Source: Candidatus Nomurabacteria bacterium
GTDB lineage: Bacteria; Patescibacteriota; Saccharimonadia; Saccharimonadales; JAGQNJ01
Reading direction: 5' to 3'
Assembly: GCA_023898625.1 (NCBI GenBank)
Contig: CP060231.1
Location: forward strand, 673,890 to 737,889
DNA: 64,000 bases
Shown here: one piece after another, positions 35,627 to 42,039 of the stretch
How positions within the stretch are numbered: position 1 is the first letter of the stretch
How the letters are laid out: each line of letters starts with the position of its first letter
Notes under the pieces: generated by a model
What the model saw: the letters and a program-made list of their open reading frames with translations, nothing else
Databases searched by the model: none
What the model was told of the DNA's origin: nothing
Translations under genes and position numbers: made by a program

Positions 35627-38105
35627 TGTTAACTGGATCAAAGAATTTACCGACATTAAGTTATCCGTAGATGAACTGGTCGCTAAGATTGGCTCTCAGC
35701 TCGGTGAAGTGGAGGAAGTAATCAATCTGGGTGAGCGATACCAAGGGATTATCGTAGCAAAAGTTGTTGCTTGCGAAAAACACCCAAATGCCGATAGGCT
35801 TAACGTTTGTTTGTTGGATGATGGAGGGGTAACTAAGGGTGTCAAAAGAAACAAGGATGGATTTGTTCAGGTTGTATGCGGTGCGCCTAATGTCAGAAAA
35901 GGTATTTCTGTGGCTTGGTTGCCTCCAGGCGTAATAGTGCCTAGTTCGTATACCAATGAACAGTTTAGACTCGAAGCTCGGGAACTGCGAGGTGTGCTTA
36001 GTAACGGCATGATTGCAAGTGGTCAAGAGTTGGCGATTAATAACGATCATTCCGGAATACTTATACTCGATAAACCCGCAAAACCAGGTGAACTATTTGC
36101 TGATATATATCAATTAAATGACTATATAATTGATGTTGAAAATAAGATGTTTACTCATCGACCAGATTGTTTTGGTCAACTTGGCATAGCCCGTGAAATA
36201 GCTGGAATATCTGGAATAAAGTTTATTAGCCCTGATTGGTACCTGAGCGAGATGGATAGCTTAAAGCCAGAATCTTCTGCAAATCTACAGGTTAGTATTG
36301 ATAACAAATTACCAGATACAGTACCCCGTTTTATGCTTTTGCCTATGAGTGATGTTAAGGTTAATCAGGCGCCGATAATGATTCAGAGCTTTTTGAGTCG
36401 TGTTGGCATTAATCCAGTTAATAATATAGTTGATATCACAAATTTTGTGATGGCCCTAACAGCACAGCCGATGCATGCCTATGATTTCGATAAATTAACT
36501 GCACTAGATAATGCAAAAGTTGCAAATTTTGTAATCAGAAAGTCAAAAAAGGGCGAAAAGATCGCTTTACTAAACGGCAAAACTGTCGAACCTACAGAAG
36601 ATTCAATTATGATTGCCACAAAAAGTTCTTCAATTGGTATTGGGGGTGTAATGGGTGGGTCTTCAACAGAGGTTGATTATAATACAAAGAATATTGTACT
36701 CGAATGCGCTAGCTTTGATATGTATGCCATAAGACGTTCTAGTATGTCAAACGGCTTGTTTACTGATGCAGTTACCAGATTTAGTAAAGGTCAGAGCCAA
36801 AGACAAAATGATCGAATTATGGCATATGCAACAGCGTGGGTTAAAAAATTAGCTGGAGGAAAGGTTGCCGGCAAACTCCAAGACGATTTAGAAAACTTTG
36901 GCAAAATCAAACCAGTCACAGTTAGTGTAGAATTTATAAACCAGAGACTAGGATCCACGTTTTCTGCTAAGCAAATTATTAAACTGCTTAGTAATGTCGA
37001 ATTTCTAGTTGAAGAAAAGGGTGGCAATTTGTATGTCACAGTACCGTTTTGGCGAACAGATATTGAAATTGCCGAAGATATTGTTGAGGAAGTTGGACGA
37101 CTGCACGGATATGACAACCTACCAAAGAACCTACCTTATAGGGATATTACGCCCGCTAGTAATAATTCAATACTTCAAATTAAGTCTAAAGCTAGGAACA
37201 TATTATCCTCTGCTGGTGCGAATGAAGTATTAACATATAGTTTTGTTCACGGAAGATTACTGGATGCGGTGGGGCAGGATAAAAATATTGCTTATAAAAT
37301 AAACAATGCATTAAGCCCTCAACTACAATATTATCGATTGAGTTTATTGCCGAGTTTACTTGAAAAGGTCCATCCAAATATTAAGTCTGGCCATAGTGAA
37401 TTTGCGATGTTCGAAATAAACAAAACTCACGATAAATCTAATATACATGAAGATGGTTTACCGATTGAAGAGGAACGTTTAGCGTTGGTTTTTGTAGCAG
37501 ACACTAAAACCGCCAAAGAATATCAAGGGAGTGCCTTTTATCAGGCTAAGATATATTTACAGTCATTACTTAAATCTTTCGGCTTTGAGGATTTGGTTTT
37601 TCAGCCTGCGTCATCACACAAGCCTAAAACAGAAACGGGCAAGCAAATTCTAGCACCATTTGAGCTGACTCGTACGGCATATTGTAAAACGAAAGATGGC
37701 GTACTGCTAGGGGTTATTGGAGAGATTAACCACAAAGTTAAAGCTAATATGAAGTTACCAGAATTCATAGCTGGTTTTGAAGTAAATCTAAAAATGCTAG
37801 ATGCATACAAGGGGTCTTTGGCCTACAAACCATTGCCGAGGTTCCCTAAGACTCAACAAGATATCACCCTTAAGGTGTCGCTTGATATTCCGCATGCAAC
37901 TATTGAACAAAGTTTATTAACAGAGCTATCAAAAATATCAAAAGAGCACGGTTATGTGACAGAAATATCTACCATTGATATTTATAAGAAAGATAATAGC
38001 AAGAATGTAACTTTTAGGATTCAACTACACCATCCAGAACGTACTTTGACTACACAAGAGGTTAATAAAGTTATAGATACCGTGGCGGGTTTGGGTCAAA
38101 AATAG
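35616..38105 (+). CDS. pheT: phenylalanyl-tRNA synthetase beta subunit
   Basis: Start refined to MKISVNWIKEF, the typical PheT N-terminus, after GGAG; tRNA-binding, B3/4, B5 and FDX-ACB length. Confidence 0.95.
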   Translation: MKISVNWIKEFTDIKLSVDELVAKIGSQLGEVEEVINLGERYQGIIVAKVVACEKHPNADRLNVCLLDDGGVTKGVKRNKDGFVQVVCGAPNVRKGISVAWLPPGVIVPSSYTNEQFRLEARELRGVLSNGMIASGQELAINNDHSGILILDKPAKPGELFADIYQLNDYIIDVENKMFTHRPDCFGQLGIAREIAGISGIKFISPDWYLSEMDSLKPESSANLQVSIDNKLPDTVPRFMLLPMSDVKVNQAPIMIQSFLSRVGINPVNNIVDITNFVMALTAQPMHAYDFDKLTALDNAKVANFVIRKSKKGEKIALLNGKTVEPTEDSIMIATKSSSIGIGGVMGGSSTEVDYNTKNIVLECASFDMYAIRRSSMSNGLFTDAVTRFSKGQSQRQNDRIMAYATAWVKKLAGGKVAGKLQDDLENFGKIKPVTVSVEFINQRLGSTFSAKQIIKLLSNVEFLVEEKGGNLYVTVPFWRTDIEIAEDIVEEVGRLHGYDNLPKNLPYRDITPASNNSILQIKSKARNILSSAGANEVLTYSFVHGRLLDAVGQDKNIAYKINNALSPQLQYYRLSLLPSLLEKVHPNIKSGHSEFAMFEINKTHDKSNIHEDGLPIEEERLALVFVADTKTAKEYQGSAFYQAKIYLQSLLKSFGFEDLVFQPASSHKPKTETGKQILAPFELTRTAYCKTKDGVLLGVIGEINHKVKANMKLPEFIAGFEVNLKMLDAYKGSLAYKPLPRFPKTQQDITLKVSLDIPHATIEQSLLTELSKISKEHGYVTEISTIDIYKKDNSKNVTFRIQLHHPERTLTTQEVNKVIDTVAGLGQK

Positions 38106-38276
38106 TTTTTTTGGATCGCAAAATGTAATTTATATATAAATGACTACATGTTGGTGCTGAATTTTTTAGTTGAAGTCGCTCTGCTGACATGCTTTTCATT
38201 GACCTCTCCTAAATCGGCATGCTAACATAAAGCTAATACTTAATTCTAAGAGGGCTCATCAATATAGTAATTACTT

Positions 38277-39404
38277 ATGGCAAGGTTACCAATACCAGGA
38301 CAAGATAGAGGTGTATGGGGTGATATCCTTAACGAGTATTTATCTGTATCCCATGAATCAGACGGTACGTTAAAATCGAGCGCAATACCTCCAGGATCAG
38401 GTGCAACTGGAGCTACTGGCCCCATTGGTTCCGTGGGCGCCACAGGATCAACTGGACTTCAGGGTGCAACTGGAGCAACAGGCCCTGGCTCTATTGGCGC
38501 AACAGGTCCAATGGGTTCAACGGGTCCAATTGGGGTAGCTGGCGCAACAGGACCAACGGGTCCAGGTGTTATAACTGGTGGTACTACTGGACAAGTTCTG
38601 GCTAAAGCTTCAAATGCAGACAATGACACTACCTGGGTGAACATTGCAGACAATGCCGTCACTTCAGTTAATGGTGATACTGGCCCAATCGTTAACTTAA
38701 ATGCAACAGATGTAGGAGCAGCTCCAACTTCACATTCTCATGATGCCACAGACATCACTTCAGGGACAGTGGCTACAACTCGGCTCGGGTCAGGTACGGC
38801 GGACTCGACGAAGTTCCTGCGTGGCGACCAGACGTGGGCGGCACCGATGATGCGGGAACTGCCCCTCTCGTCGGGGTATCTCATCGCTCTCCCCGCTGGT
38901 GGCGTTGGCTCCTTCGGATTGTCAGCGTCGGCTGGTCGGTTCTGGTTGATCCCGATGTGGTTGCCCGCTGGAACCTAGGACCGTGTCGGTGTCGCCACCA
39001 CCGGAGCGGGGACCACCACATGGCGACTCGGTGCCTACAAGGCCAACCCGTCGACGCTCATGCCCGACGGCACGGCGCTGATACAAGAGTTCGGCACCAT
39101 CGACCTGAGCGTCACGCCCGGAGAGTTGTCTGTGTCCACATCGTTCACGGTGCCCACCTCTGGGCTCTACTGGATGGCCGTGCTGGTCGATTCGTACACG
39201 TCGGCCCCATCGGCGGTGGGATGGCAAGGTCAATACACGGTCCCGCCGGTCCCGTGGATGCCTGTGACCGTGCACCAGATCGCTCTTGGGCGATCGTTGT
39301 GGCTTCGGATGGCCTACTCGGTCCCGACGGGTGCGGTTCCGGCGACGTGTCCGACCACAGCGTGGAGCGATCTGGGACCCCAGGTCAGATTGAGGGTGGC
39401 GTGA
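38277..39404 (+). pseudogene. phage tail-fibre-like protein with collagen-like repeats; single frame interrupted by an in-frame TAG at 38976-38978
   Basis: N-terminus [36 protein letters not shown] repeats and the [18 protein letters not shown] motif resemble actinophage minor tail or fibre proteins. The same frame, with the same G/C third-position bias, continues after the TAG to a TGA at 39402-39404. Confidence 0.7.
38400..38567 (+). repeat. collagen-like G-X-Y triplet repeat (about 17 triplets, one register shift at GPGSIG)
   Basis: [56 protein letters not shown] read directly from the translation. Confidence 0.9.
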
Positions 39405-39545
39405 TGAACGAGTCCATCTTCTCGAACGGTCGCCTCGTCGAGCAGACCGTCGACAACGGCGACGGCACCGGCACCCGCACCACCTTCGACGCCGACGGCA
39501 ACGTCGACACGGTCGAACAACTCACCGGGCTACCCATCCCCGAAC
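38780..39545 (+). other. high-GC patch (about 65-68% G+C) embedded in frame in low-GC genes
   Basis: 41/60 G+C at 38821-38880 against 25/60 at 38641-38700; codons are dominated by tcg/acg/ccg/gtc/ggc; AT-rich sequence resumes after about 39545. Confidence 0.85.
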
Positions 39546-39631
39546 CAGTTCCACCTACACAAGCAGAACAGATAGCAGAGTTACAGGCTACCGTTGCCAA
39601 GCTTAAGGACGCTTTGAAAAAACGTGACTAA
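39404..39631 (+). CDS. small protein translationally coupled to the fibre gene (candidate fibre assembly or partner protein)
   Basis: GTGATGA junction: the stop at 39402-39404 overlaps the ATG at 39404. 75 aa, MNESIFSNGRLVEQTVDNGDGTGTRTTFDADGNVDTVEQL... with a C-terminal coiled-coil-like AEQIAELQATVAKLKDALKK. Confidence 0.6.
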   Translation: MNESIFSNGRLVEQTVDNGDGTGTRTTFDADGNVDTVEQLTGLPIPEPVPPTQAEQIAELQATVAKLKDALKKRD

Positions 39632-39674: not shown

Positions 39675-39703
39675 TTGACATTTCGGTAAGTAGTTATTAT
39701 AAT
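39675..39703 (+). promoter_or_regulatory. perfect consensus sigma70 promoter
   Basis: TTGACA (39675-39680), exactly 17-nt spacer, TATAAT (39698-39703); no plausible ORF follows. Confidence 0.7.
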
Positions 39704-39834
39704 CAACTTAGTTTGGTTGAGTCTTATGGATTCCCAGGCAGGACTTTGACAGATGTATATAGGTAGGCAACAGTATTAGTGCATAACTATTTTTGTGTAT
39801 TATTACTGTTGTCTAAATAATAGACTAATTTCGT

Positions 39835-40100
39835 GTCGGCGCCAGGATGGGGATGGCACCGGCCTGCAGAGAAGGTGAGTTGAGCGAGAAATCGTTCCTC
39901 CTGCCACCACAAGGGGCAAGGCAGTATCATGCAAACCTGGGCGGGTTTCGTGATGCCTTCTCCACACCCTACGCCTTCTTGGCTTATCCCAGTAGGTCGA
40001 GGAGGTTACCCGGACCTTCGTTGTGTGCTAAGCATCGCTTCGCATGGCGGAGGTCCGGGACCAATTGGTCTATTAGTAGTGTCGAGCACTAAGGTTGAGT
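39835..40100 (+). ncRNA. unclassified GC-rich structured RNA candidate
   Basis: 36/60 G+C at 39841-39900 against 25/60 in the flank. Four-way junction closed by GAGAAGG (39869-75) / CCTTCTC (39956-62), with hairpins at 39883-96 (GAAA tetraloop), 39901-24 and 39926-54. 12-bp helix 40009-20 / 40048-59. The strand is inferred from the GNRA loop and the upstream promoter. Confidence 0.45.
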
Positions 40101-40269
40101 TTATTAGAGCATTTTTGCTCCTCACTTCTTCGCTCCATTAATTACTAATATACATCTGTCCTTTCATCAGAGCATGTATTTATATACATTCTGTGATGAG
40201 AGAATAAGTCATAAAATGTCCTACAATCAATGTCGTATATTTAGGCTTTTGCATGTAAACTACTAACTG

Positions 40270-42039
40270 ATGAAACATCTAATTAAAATTCTAAAGTATA
40301 CATCTAGCCTTAGATGGTATTACATAATTATCAGTATACTTAGTGTTCTTTTTGCGGTAACCGGCTTAATTACTCCTTTGCTTTCAGGTAAAGCGATAGA
40401 CTTGCTAAAATCTGGATCTACAGATACTAGAGCATTACTTTTAATTGTTGTGGCTATTTTTGTTTTAGATGTATTTTCTACGATAATATCTAACATTTCT
40501 GGATATATGGGTGACGTAATGTCAACCAAGCTACAACGAATATTAAGCACGCGTTACTACGAGCATTTGCTAGAGTTACCACAAAGTTACTATGACAAAG
40601 AGCTTTCTGGCAAGATTATAAATCGTTTAAATCGTTCCATTGCCCAAATTAGCAACTTTATGCAGATGTGGAGCAACAACTTTTTGCAGTTTGTATTCAG
40701 TACAGTGTTGGCTTTGGCGATTATTGCATATTTTAGTTGGCCAATAGCGTTATTGTTAGCCAGCCTGTATCCGATTTATATATTCATGACAATTAAAACA
40801 AGTGGAAAGTGGCTGAAATACCAAGCAAAGCTTAATAAAAATTGGGACATTGCAACTGGTAGGTTTGCAGAAAGCATTGGACAAATTAAGGTTGTTAAAA
40901 GTTTTGTCAGGGAGGACGGCGAACTTTCTTATTTTGATAAATATTACAAAAAAATAGTCAATATTGTATATCCGCAATCAAGGCATTGGCACGTGAGAGA
41001 TGTACAAAGAAGACTTATCTTAAATGTGATATTTTTCTGCGTTTACGCTTTGATATTTTATCAAGCTGTTAATGGCCAATTTACGCCTGGGCAAGCAGTT
41101 ACGCTAATTTTATATGCTATGCAAATCAGAATTCCGATATTTACGGTGAGTTTCTTAGTGGACAGCACTCAAAAAGCTGTTGCTGATAGCAAGGATTATT
41201 TTGAAGTTATGAACGTAACGCCTGACATAAAAGACTTATCAACAGCAAAAGACCTGGTGGTGAGCAAGGGTGAAATAAGCTTTAGCAATGTAACTTTCGC
41301 CTATGACGAAAAACCAGTAATTAAAAATGTGACTTTTGATGTGCTTCCGGATACTAAAATTGCTTTGGTGGGCGAAAGTGGAGAAGGTAAAACCACCATC
41401 ACAAATTTATTGATGAGATTATACGAAACAAATAAAGGAGAGATATTGATTGATGGTCAAAATATCGCAGACGTAAAGCAGGCCAGTCTACGTAAACAAA
41501 TTGGCGCGGTGTTTCAAGAACCAGCCCTGTTTAGTGGAACAATTAAAGAGAACATTGCTTATGCGAATCCAAAAGCCAGCATTAAAGATATAATAAACGC
41601 TTCTAAAGACGCAAATGCACATGATTTTATTTCAAAACTTGAACATGGCTATGATAGCGAAATTGGCGAGCGAGGCCTTAAGTTATCGGGTGGCCAGAAA
41701 CAGCGGATCGCTATAGCCAGAGCCTTGCTAAAAAATGCTCCAATATTAATACTTGACGAGGCTACCAGTAGTCTAGATAGCAAAAGTGAACAAATGGTTC
41801 AAGAAGCATTAAAGCGCTTAATGAAAGGTAGGACAACCCTGATTGTGGCGCATAGATTGAGTACTATTCAGCACGTTGATACTATAATTACATTAAAGAA
41901 CGGCAAGATAGATGAAATTGGCTCTCCAGAAAAGCTGGCAATTTCAGGCGGAATCTATTCCCAGCTTCTAAACTTACAAAATACTGCCGTGGAGTCCTCG
42001 CGAAAAGAACGCTTAAGCAAGTTTGATATCGCAAGCTAG
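40270..42039 (+). CDS. ABC exporter, fused permease/ATPase (MsbA-like)
   Basis: 589 aa; six N-terminal TM helices, Walker A GESGEGKTT, signature LSGGQKQR, Walker B ILILDEATS. Confidence 0.9.
   Translation: MKHLIKILKYTSSLRWYYIIISILSVLFAVTGLITPLLSGKAIDLLKSGSTDTRALLLIVVAIFVLDVFSTIISNISGYMGDVMSTKLQRILSTRYYEHLLELPQSYYDKELSGKIINRLNRSIAQISNFMQMWSNNFLQFVFSTVLALAIIAYFSWPIALLLASLYPIYIFMTIKTSGKWLKYQAKLNKNWDIATGRFAESIGQIKVVKSFVREDGELSYFDKYYKKIVNIVYPQSRHWHVRDVQRRLILNVIFFCVYALIFYQAVNGQFTPGQAVTLILYAMQIRIPIFTVSFLVDSTQKAVADSKDYFEVMNVTPDIKDLSTAKDLVVSKGEISFSNVTFAYDEKPVIKNVTFDVLPDTKIALVGESGEGKTTITNLLMRLYETNKGEILIDGQNIADVKQASLRKQIGAVFQEPALFSGTIKENIAYANPKASIKDIINASKDANAHDFISKLEHGYDSEIGERGLKLSGGQKQRIAIARALLKNAPILILDEATSSLDSKSEQMVQEALKRLMKGRTTLIVAHRLSTIQHVDTIITLKNGKIDEIGSPEKLAISGGIYSQLLNLQNTAVESSRKERLSKFDIAS

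Follow-up and report, generated by a model that had tools for sequence, protein, structure and literature searches.

In this study, we examined an in-frame amber codon in the chromosome of an ultra-small bacterium. With a probability of roughly 80%, this TAG reflects a true nonsense mutation, a point change at a conserved Tyr position of a mosaic, phage-derived fibre gene, carried by every sampled copy of the allele, and not a recoding event. The window, i.e., the whole stretch of DNA that was analysed, comprises 64,000 nt of Candidatus Nomurabacteria bacterium (GCA_023898625.1, CP060231.1, positions 673,890-737,889, forward strand). GTDB places the organism in the lineage Patescibacteriota; Saccharimonadia; Saccharimonadales; JAGQNJ01, within the CPR, and its chromosome has a size of ~0.9 Mb. 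The two genomes with the gene are named Candidatus Nomurabacteria bacterium and Candidatus Saccharimonadales bacterium at NCBI. In the reading that we prefer, the proximal 165 codons (conserved head and collagen-like stalk) would be native to the small-genome Saccharimonadales, and a cassette at ~38772-39545, coding for a putative beta-sandwich (jelly-roll-like) head of ~185 residues, would have been imported recently from the tail module of a high-GC siphovirus. Recombination may have taken place within a fibre motif on the left and within the small gene that trails such fibres on the right. A single T-to-G (from TAT) or C-to-G (from TAC) exchange would then have created the TAG and cut the gene after 233 codons, which would leave the following 141 codons as an untranslated, otherwise undamaged relic. 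The first-pass annotation, made from the sequence of the window, described one continuous, codon-biased frame split by a stop. It missed the foreign ~775-bp patch behind this codon bias, and, with it, the mosaic nature of the gene, whose low-GC stalk is native and whose head derives from a phage.

The truncated gene encodes a collagen-like, fibre-like protein of 233 aa (38277..38978, + strand) and was taken from the ORF list; its product was recovered from at least 23 contigs and matches tail-fibre PHROGs. NCBI names the product 'collagen-like protein' (USN95382.1, MFO0886825.1). In the frame of the ATG at 38277, the sequence around the stop is ...CCCGCTGGAACC TAG GACCGTGTC..., with the codons TGG TTG CCC GCT GGA ACC TAG GAC CGT GTC. 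The nonsense codon (38976..38978, + strand) stands in place of a Tyr, encoded by TAT in homologues, and is present in every strain variant that covers the site (L001-L007 and L072). The 233-aa ORF that was first reported does end at this TAG, and a search for ATG, GTG and TTG after the stop confirmed that no in-frame start precedes the ATG at 39060. The frame also remains open as far as the TGA at 39402; the 142 codons counted before, however, include this TGA (39402-39404), and 141 of them are sense codons (38979-39401). The shared G/C bias at third codon positions proved correct for the codons close to the stop (GC3 0.67-0.87 on either side) but not for codons 1-165, where GC3 is 0.07-0.40. 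The 141 intact codons and their TGA (38979..39404, + strand) represent the remainder of a head domain with 74-79% protein identity to phage homologues and contain no other stop or frameshift. Presumably, these codons are not translated.

In DNA of this composition, an open frame has to be interpreted with caution. The +2 frame of the high-GC patch (38772-39545) contains zero stops over 774 nt, while the other frames contain 3-6. Because the +2 frame is wholly open, openness alone is no proof of an interrupted coding frame; it is homology, and not the openness of the frame, that shows that one coding frame is interrupted here. A long ORF in the +2 frame (38834..39631, 265 aa) was rejected as a gene and regarded as a by-product of the high GC content that runs into the small downstream ORF. 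Gene callers turn this ORF into differing products of 203 aa or 136 aa across assemblies. Re-initiation at the ATG at 39060 was rejected as well, since no Shine-Dalgarno-like sequence precedes this codon and the product would be without the first strands of the domain.

Five homologous proteins (P0001-P0005) span the stop and cover 99-100% of a query composed of the C-terminal 220 residues of the fused frame (E 2e-99 to 7e-49, identity 76-49%). In these alignments the stop is paired with a Tyr in the block LPAG(T/S)-Y-DR(V/I)GV, e.g., LPAGT-Y-DRVGV. The residue opposite the TAG is thus a conserved Tyr, and the homologues do not end at this position. At the DNA level, five phage homologues were read (L008, L061, L062, L063 and L064), and each of them has TAT as this codon. 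In an alignment of 86 sequences, the column holds Tyr in 61/86 and I/L/F/V in 22/86. For the 141 residues past the stop, a search of 1.84 billion proteins gave matches to 149 representative clusters (best E=4.7e-63); in almost every case, the matched segment forms the extreme C-terminal end of a protein of 134-1484 aa. The earlier claim that the stop lies within one domain is therefore well founded, as the column belongs to the most conserved block of a single beta-sandwich domain.

The structure was predicted by AF2 for P0375, a 79%-identical homologue, with 86 sequences; a run with 21 sequences gave a pLDDT of 47 and was not used. In this model, residues ~205-390 form a beta-sandwich (pLDDT 90-98), and Tyr247 of P0375 is situated in the second strand (245-256). 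Because the stop falls at the start of this second strand, the translated 233-aa product would comprise the stalk but, of the head, no more than the first strand, and is therefore predicted to be a headless stalk. Foldseek matched the fold to a virion chain of cyanophage A4 (E=3.8e-9) and a tail-tip chain of mycobacteriophage Bxb1 (E=3e-4), followed by lower matches to TNF-like, C1q/BclA-like and CBM-like jelly rolls. Comparison of the family profile with the PDB gave no sequence relative, and the C-terminal domain had no match in Pfam and NCBIfam. In the collection of isolated phages, neither the head domain (tblastn) nor the 1.5-kb locus (blastn) was matched. Together with the PHROG matches and the homologues in tail modules, the Foldseek hits relate the protein to fibres and receptor-binding proteins in both sequence and fold.

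The N-terminal part of the protein belongs to a different context. Its first 33-38 residues (38277..38381, + strand) form the conserved N-terminal head of a Saccharibacteria/Patescibacteria family with variable C-termini, which we found at 52 loci in GTDB genomes. These loci match residues 1-33 or more with 57-81% identity, and are mostly from Saccharibacteria, often with several per genome. ORFs headed by the conserved N-terminus range from 119 to 1588 aa and have unrelated C-termini; for the N-terminal head itself no Pfam or NCBIfam family was found. It is followed by a collagen-like Gly-X-Y stalk (residues 40-98; 38394..38570, + strand), the length of which varies between strains. Pfam Collagen matches residues 42-95 with E=4.7e-5, below its gathering score, and the NCBIfam models of collagen-like adhesins match partially over the Gly-X-Y region, with 47 bits against a cut-off of 500. 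The stalk region is also matched by PHROG profiles, both for tail fibres and for 'collagen like minor tail'; the tail-fibre matches are to families 5073, 6320 and 30509 (E 1e-10 to 1e-7). Two relatives, L013 and L023, are lone chromosomal genes, one adjoining recA and genes that, judged from their sequence, appear to be type IV pilus genes, and the other adjoining a P-type ATPase gene. Likewise, the fibre-like gene of the window stands alone between pheT and an ABC transporter gene, outside any phage or prophage tail module. A promoter-like site upstream (38199..38228, + strand; TTGACC-18-TAACAT with TG) was obtained from a consensus scan with 9/12 matches, although the number of such sites is not above shuffled expectation. 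No Rfam match was found near the locus, either at the gathering score or at E<=1, and a search of the literature returned nothing relevant on these assemblies or on Saccharibacteria with tail fibre or collagen.

The head lies in a horizontally acquired patch of 64.7% GC (38772..39545, + strand), delimited by the GC profile, by GC3 bins and by DNA identity to phage-type contigs. In comparison, the window has 40% GC overall and the flanking genes ~36%, against ~65% in the patch. GC3 steps at ~38772 (0.33 to 0.67 between 38771 and 38772) and again at ~39545. Over 755-795 nt, the patch aligns with 80-82% DNA identity to L008, L061, L063 and L064, which are metagenomic contigs of 67-68% GC. Thus, a sharp break in composition coincides with identifiable donor-like DNA, as expected of horizontal transfer. 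The left recombination junction was mapped to ~38759-38785, inside the motif 'SGTxATxRLGSGT..FLRGDxTW', and DNA identity to L008 starts at 38751. This conserved fibre motif (38751..38846, + strand) is invariant in alignment A1 and is shared with >100 unrelated fibre proteins at 80-94% identity. The right breakpoint lies within the next gene, a mosaic ORF of 75 aa (39404..39631, + strand) that is identical to H6793_03590, has a GAGG upstream and overlaps the stop of the fibre frame by one base (TGATG). More than 500 relatives of 73-95 aa were found for this small protein, and in the phage contigs examined its gene is placed after the fibre gene. Its first ~47 codons are donor-like (GC3 0.8-1.0), whereas the last ~28 codons, from ~39546, are low in GC and resident; GC3 drops from 1.0 to 0.2 at ~39540-39555. 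The low-GC tail is nevertheless homologous to tails of the same small-protein family (AEQIAELQATVAKLKDAL vs AEKIAELQATVDALLDAL in P0238), which suggests that an older resident copy of the cassette was partly overwritten.

The homologous gene is situated downstream of the tape-measure gene in L008 and L062. L062 additionally encodes a tail tube protein and a holin, and L061 a tail terminator protein. Among isolated phages, the tail tube protein of a 39-kb contig matches only those of Propionibacterium, Streptomyces and Thermobifida, and from these actinophage matches we infer an actinobacterial host for the donor phage. The donor was probably the tail module of a high-GC siphovirus, and this siphovirus probably an actinobacterial phage; the direction and the route of the transfer are likewise those that the comparison suggests. 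Among polarised substitutions, GC-to-AT changes are in excess on the lineage of the window (26 vs 9, compared with 8 vs 9 for the phages; Fisher p=0.07), which may hint at beginning amelioration of the imported DNA.

A second allele occurs at the same locus. The 90% cluster of the 233-aa protein also includes members of 195-198 aa, and the contigs of the second allele (L066-L071; at least 19 contigs in all) have the same neighbours as the window. Their agreement with the window extends to 38839 and resumes at 39507, so that the segment 38840..39506 (+ strand) differs between the two alleles as an exchangeable cassette. In between, the second allele carries an unrelated cassette of ~620 bp with ~48% GC. 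Its stalk gene ends in ...FLRGDSTWATTLQPSLDGG*, and an ORF of 185 aa follows in another frame, starting from a GTG that overlaps the stop of the stalk gene (GTGA; GACGGGGGGTGATCCCCTCAGGGGGGG). This ORF represents a head domain that is 37% identical to the head of the window and has a Phe at the stop column. The change of frame between stalk and head in L066-L071 takes place at GACGGGGGGTGA, a G6 run, and one added G would fuse both ORFs. The G6 and G7 tracts at the stalk/head junction had identical lengths in 6/6 contigs, which are consensus assemblies and as such blind to minority variants; differences in tract length between samples, the mark of a phase-variable contingency locus, were not seen in these six consensus contigs. 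The 5' half of the small gene is absent from the second allele, and its low-GC tail is left as a remnant. A scan of IMG/VR for the head of the second allele found nothing. Both alleles thus carry foreign heads, each uncoupled from the stalk. The separation of head and stalk in the second allele could, however, mean a functional separation rather than decay.

The TAG was reproduced in a large number of assemblies. An identical 233-aa product turned up in 31 index blocks; it is encoded by at least 23 contigs, among them an NCBI contig of 939,581 bp (GCA_046350715.1) as well as Logan and ENA assemblies of separate runs. Over the locus, the contigs are 97.5-100% identical to the window. In the strain variants L004, L006 and L007 the TAG is kept despite differences at other sites, and in the Logan contig L072 it is preceded by a C4 run that has lost 1 nt. 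No protein of ~375 aa with this N-terminus was found among 5.8 billion proteins. A pattern scan of JGI metagenomes with a free third codon base recovered one more contig of the donor type, L064, in which the codon is TAT, but no copy of the mosaic gene with a sense codon, and a scan of IMG/VR for the DNA pattern of the junction found nothing. In principle, an error of consensus or assembly, or a chimeric join of two organisms, could have produced the stop or the high-GC patch, as the window is derived from a metagenome-assembled genome and some contigs stop inside the patch (L005 at 39478 and L006 at 39467, in window positions). Such an artefact is hardly credible. The same TAG and the same two junctions are shared by contigs of no fewer than seven separate runs or assemblies (NCBI, Logan, ENA), identically in L001-L007 and L072; several contigs cross the entire patch and reach pheT and the ABC transporter gene on its two sides; and the contig ends are better accounted for by the co-occurring second allele. 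The recurrence of the stop in many independent assemblies also speaks against the sense codon that reads might have revealed according to the first-pass annotation.

The first-pass annotation had offered three explanations for the stop, and the homologues discriminate between them. A recent nonsense mutation within one domain is supported by TAG standing against TAT/Tyr in the five phage homologues and against Tyr in most of the alignment. A difference in the genetic code, in which the donor phage or the host would read TAG as sense (e.g., Tyr or Gln) and the gene would be intact in its proper code, has nothing in its favour apart from the intact downstream frame, and its likelihood is close to nil. 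All donor-type contigs have TAT at this site together with normal long ORFs and an ordinary gene structure, which refutes a donor that reads TAG as sense. As claimed before, TAG is also a genuine stop elsewhere in the window: the 45 ORFs of at least 200 codons end in TAG (17), TAA (15) or TGA (13). TAG terminates both flanking genes, pheT (38103-38105) and the ABC transporter gene (42037-42039), which have full domain complements, as well as a pyrophosphatase gene and 14 other long ORFs. A scan of the 64-kb window for stops between long open stretches revealed no other gene interrupted by TAG; two other TAG cases turned out to be boundaries between unrelated neighbouring genes. Leaky or programmed readthrough, the remaining explanation, would turn the locus into a regulated two-product gene, in which low-level readthrough or suppression at UAG gives a minority of full-length protein beside the headless stalk. 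It could account for the 141 intact downstream codons that are still similar to phage homologues, for a stop that is unchanged in all strains of this allele, and for the separation of stalk and head in the other allele. We nevertheless regard it as distinctly improbable. All 86 aligned homologues (149 representative clusters were detected) lack a stop at this column, so that the TAG does not qualify as a conserved programmed feature, and downstream of it there is no re-start signal. Since TAG is the most used stop in the window, efficient suppression would be costly. Moreover, the 64-kb window contains no suppressor tRNA; its tRNA content is one Ala-GGC, and a search for the GGQ motif found no release-factor gene in it. 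Finally, intact downstream codons are expected anyway if the mutation is young, and the GC content of the patch is still 65%, with just 2 SNPs between the strain variants compared.

The nonsense mutation itself may have been neutral or selected. Compared with the phage homologues, dN/dS is 0.22-0.31 before the stop and 0.37 after it; most of this divergence probably predates the transfer and arose in phages. Replacements at sites conserved in the outgroup number 11 on the window lineage vs 5 on the phage lineage after the stop (p=0.21) and 4 vs 1 before it, neither of which is significant. Over the 141 codons past the stop, we found no sign of relaxed constraint (more stops, frameshifts or dN/dS near 1) and no positive evidence of neutral evolution. 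Because no other lesion is present downstream, either the truncation is of young age or the stalk-only product is the one being maintained. Among strains, codons 47-161 upstream of the stop differ by 12 synonymous changes, two replacements and one in-frame 9-nt deletion (L007); this prevalence of synonymous changes in the native stalk indicates that the upstream part is still constrained. In the patch only two strain differences occur, both non-synonymous, a pattern that would fit a recent import and a young stop. The data are alike compatible with neutral decay and with a tolerated or favoured loss of the head, and cannot separate them. If loss of the foreign head was advantageous, or if the headless stalk is the functional unit, the stop would have been fixed by selection and not by drift, although the molecular event would be the same. 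This version of the truncation draws on the two alleles, which both uncouple the head just after the FLRGDxTW motif (by the TAG here and by the frame change in L066-L071), on natural family members as short as 119-139 aa, on the mostly synonymous changes in the stalk and on the fact that no intact allele was sampled. Still, two events are a small number, and separate translation of the head, conceivable in the second allele, where its ORF overlaps the stalk stop (GTGA), is impossible in the allele of the window. We consider selection for head loss unlikely.

It is tempting to speculate further that the locus is a site of cassette exchange. An epibiotic member of the Saccharimonadales would repeatedly take receptor-binding heads from phages of its host, presumably an actinobacterium, and graft them onto its resident stalk of the collagen-like kind, and thereby borrow the specificity of the phage for the host surface. 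Potentially, the head is gated by a stop codon or by a frame change at a G tract, which would give a low-level or switchable full-length protein. Three observations bear on this idea: two different foreign heads are present at the same site in co-circulating strains, both heads are intact apart from one uncoupling lesion, and the family is large and multi-copy with a hypervariable C-terminus. As a whole, the scenario must be considered a long shot.

With the nonsense mutation as the preferred reading, the stop codon is an everyday event that needs no new mechanism, and the site therefore leaves any list of candidate recoding or readthrough sites. Since the head is presumably not expressed in this allele, the practical outcome is a corrected annotation with three parts: the truncated gene, the relic and the small ORF of mosaic origin. 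What is worth recording is the phage-to-CPR mosaic and the two-allele cassette locus, whereas the stop itself is ordinary. The patch represents a clean and datable case of gene flow from phage to CPR, ~775 bp of 65% GC with mapped breakpoints in a genome of ~40% GC or less. The recipient belongs to a large, uncharacterised family of fibre-like proteins of Saccharibacteria, and two head cassettes segregate at one of its loci. If it is true that these proteins attach the epibiont to its host, this locus would be a natural experiment in the swapping of specificity.

The locus resembles several known systems in part. The collagen-like tail fibres and minor tail proteins of Actinobacteria siphoviruses (e.g., the Bxb1 tail-tip chain 9d93_Pa) share with it the Gly-X-Y stalk, the SGT..RLG..FLRGDxTW motif, the beta-sandwich head and the overlapping small gene, and its head and small gene are ~80% identical at the DNA level to cassettes in the tail modules of phage contigs with 67-69% GC. 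In contrast to the siphovirus fibres, it is a lone gene in a CPR chromosome, its N-terminus is of the Saccharibacteria family and not that of the phage homologues, and a stop deprives it of its head. The bacterial surface proteins BclA of Bacillus, Scl1/Scl2 of Streptococcus and Lcl of Legionella likewise have a collagen-like triple-helix region and the layout of a stalk with a jelly-roll (C1q/TNF-like) head; however, the scores are far under the cut-offs (47 vs 500 bits), neither an LPXTG motif nor any other anchor was seen, and no sequence relationship extends outside the repeats. Like ordinary transferred genes with a nonsense mutation, the gene has one disabling substitution at a conserved codon, an atypical composition and no intact allele. 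Unlike such decaying genes, it has not undergone further decay yet, and its sister allele was disrupted independently at almost the same place. The import also has a parallel in the exchange of tail-fibre cassettes between phages, where breakpoints likewise fall in the conserved motif ahead of the head and in the small gene behind it; L008, L061 and L063, for instance, are phage contigs that carry a near-identical head (0 synonymous differences) on different N-terminal parts. What sets the present case apart from exchange between phages is its recipient, a CPR chromosome with a GC content ~30 points below that of the donor.

The head domain encoded by the high-GC patch is also found in phages, where three phage-type contigs carry copies of it that are nearly identical to one another (L008 6577-7137, L061 6204-6764 and L063 768-1328). 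Over 141 codons, these copies differ by 0 synonymous and 2-5 non-synonymous substitutions, and the N-terminal parts to which they are joined clearly differ. Thus, the head moves as a cassette between phages too.

In the second allele, in which another head cassette replaces window positions 38840-39506, G6 and G7 homopolymer runs lie precisely where the stalk ORF gives way to the head ORF (4556-4620 in contig L066), and one additional G would fuse the two ORFs. No length variation of these runs was seen among the six consensus contigs. Two contigs with the window allele, L005 and L006, stop inside the patch (window 39478 and 39467, respectively), near the point at which the two alleles diverge, which suggests that both alleles are present together in these samples. 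Another contig with the window allele, L072, has additionally lost 1 nt from a C4 run that precedes the TAG (L072 1841, corresponding to window ~38862).

The +2 frame of the high-GC patch contains a 265-codon ORF that extends into the small gene (38834-39631), and in some assemblies gene callers derived products of 203 aa or 136 aa from it. This is the wrong frame of the patch, and these products are likely mis-annotations. The small gene itself (39404-39631, 75 aa) has more than 500 relatives of 73-95 aa, which together form a family that is absent from Pfam. Its members consist of a conserved N-terminal half, a Pro-rich linker and a short helix at the C-terminus. In the phage contigs that were inspected (L008, L061 and L063-L065), the small gene is located directly 3' of the fibre gene.

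Downstream of a perfect sigma-70-type promoter (TTGACA-17-TATAAT, 39675-39703), the region 39675-40121 contains a GC-rich non-coding stretch (~39830-40075, 53-58% GC). The + strand of this stretch folds with -129 kcal/mol, far more stably than shuffled sequences (z=-4.8), and no Rfam match was obtained at E<=1. The stretch may encode a structured RNA that has not been annotated, or it may be a leader of the ABC transporter gene. In strains L001-L003 (including NCBI GCA_046350715.1), the element contains a 65-nt insertion (site 39958/39959; L001 4687-4751), which itself forms a hairpin (GGAGACCCAACC...GGTTGGGTCTCC).

The N-terminal head of ~35 residues, beginning MARLP(I/Q/V) (38277-38381, and at the match positions of the GTDB loci L009-L060), marks a large, multi-copy and uncurated family of Saccharibacteria/Patescibacteria. 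A few members come from bins labelled Galbitalea, Salinibacterium, Herpetosiphon and Mucilaginibacter. The C-termini in this family range from 119 to 1588 aa and include collagen-like, pectate-lyase-like and other domains.
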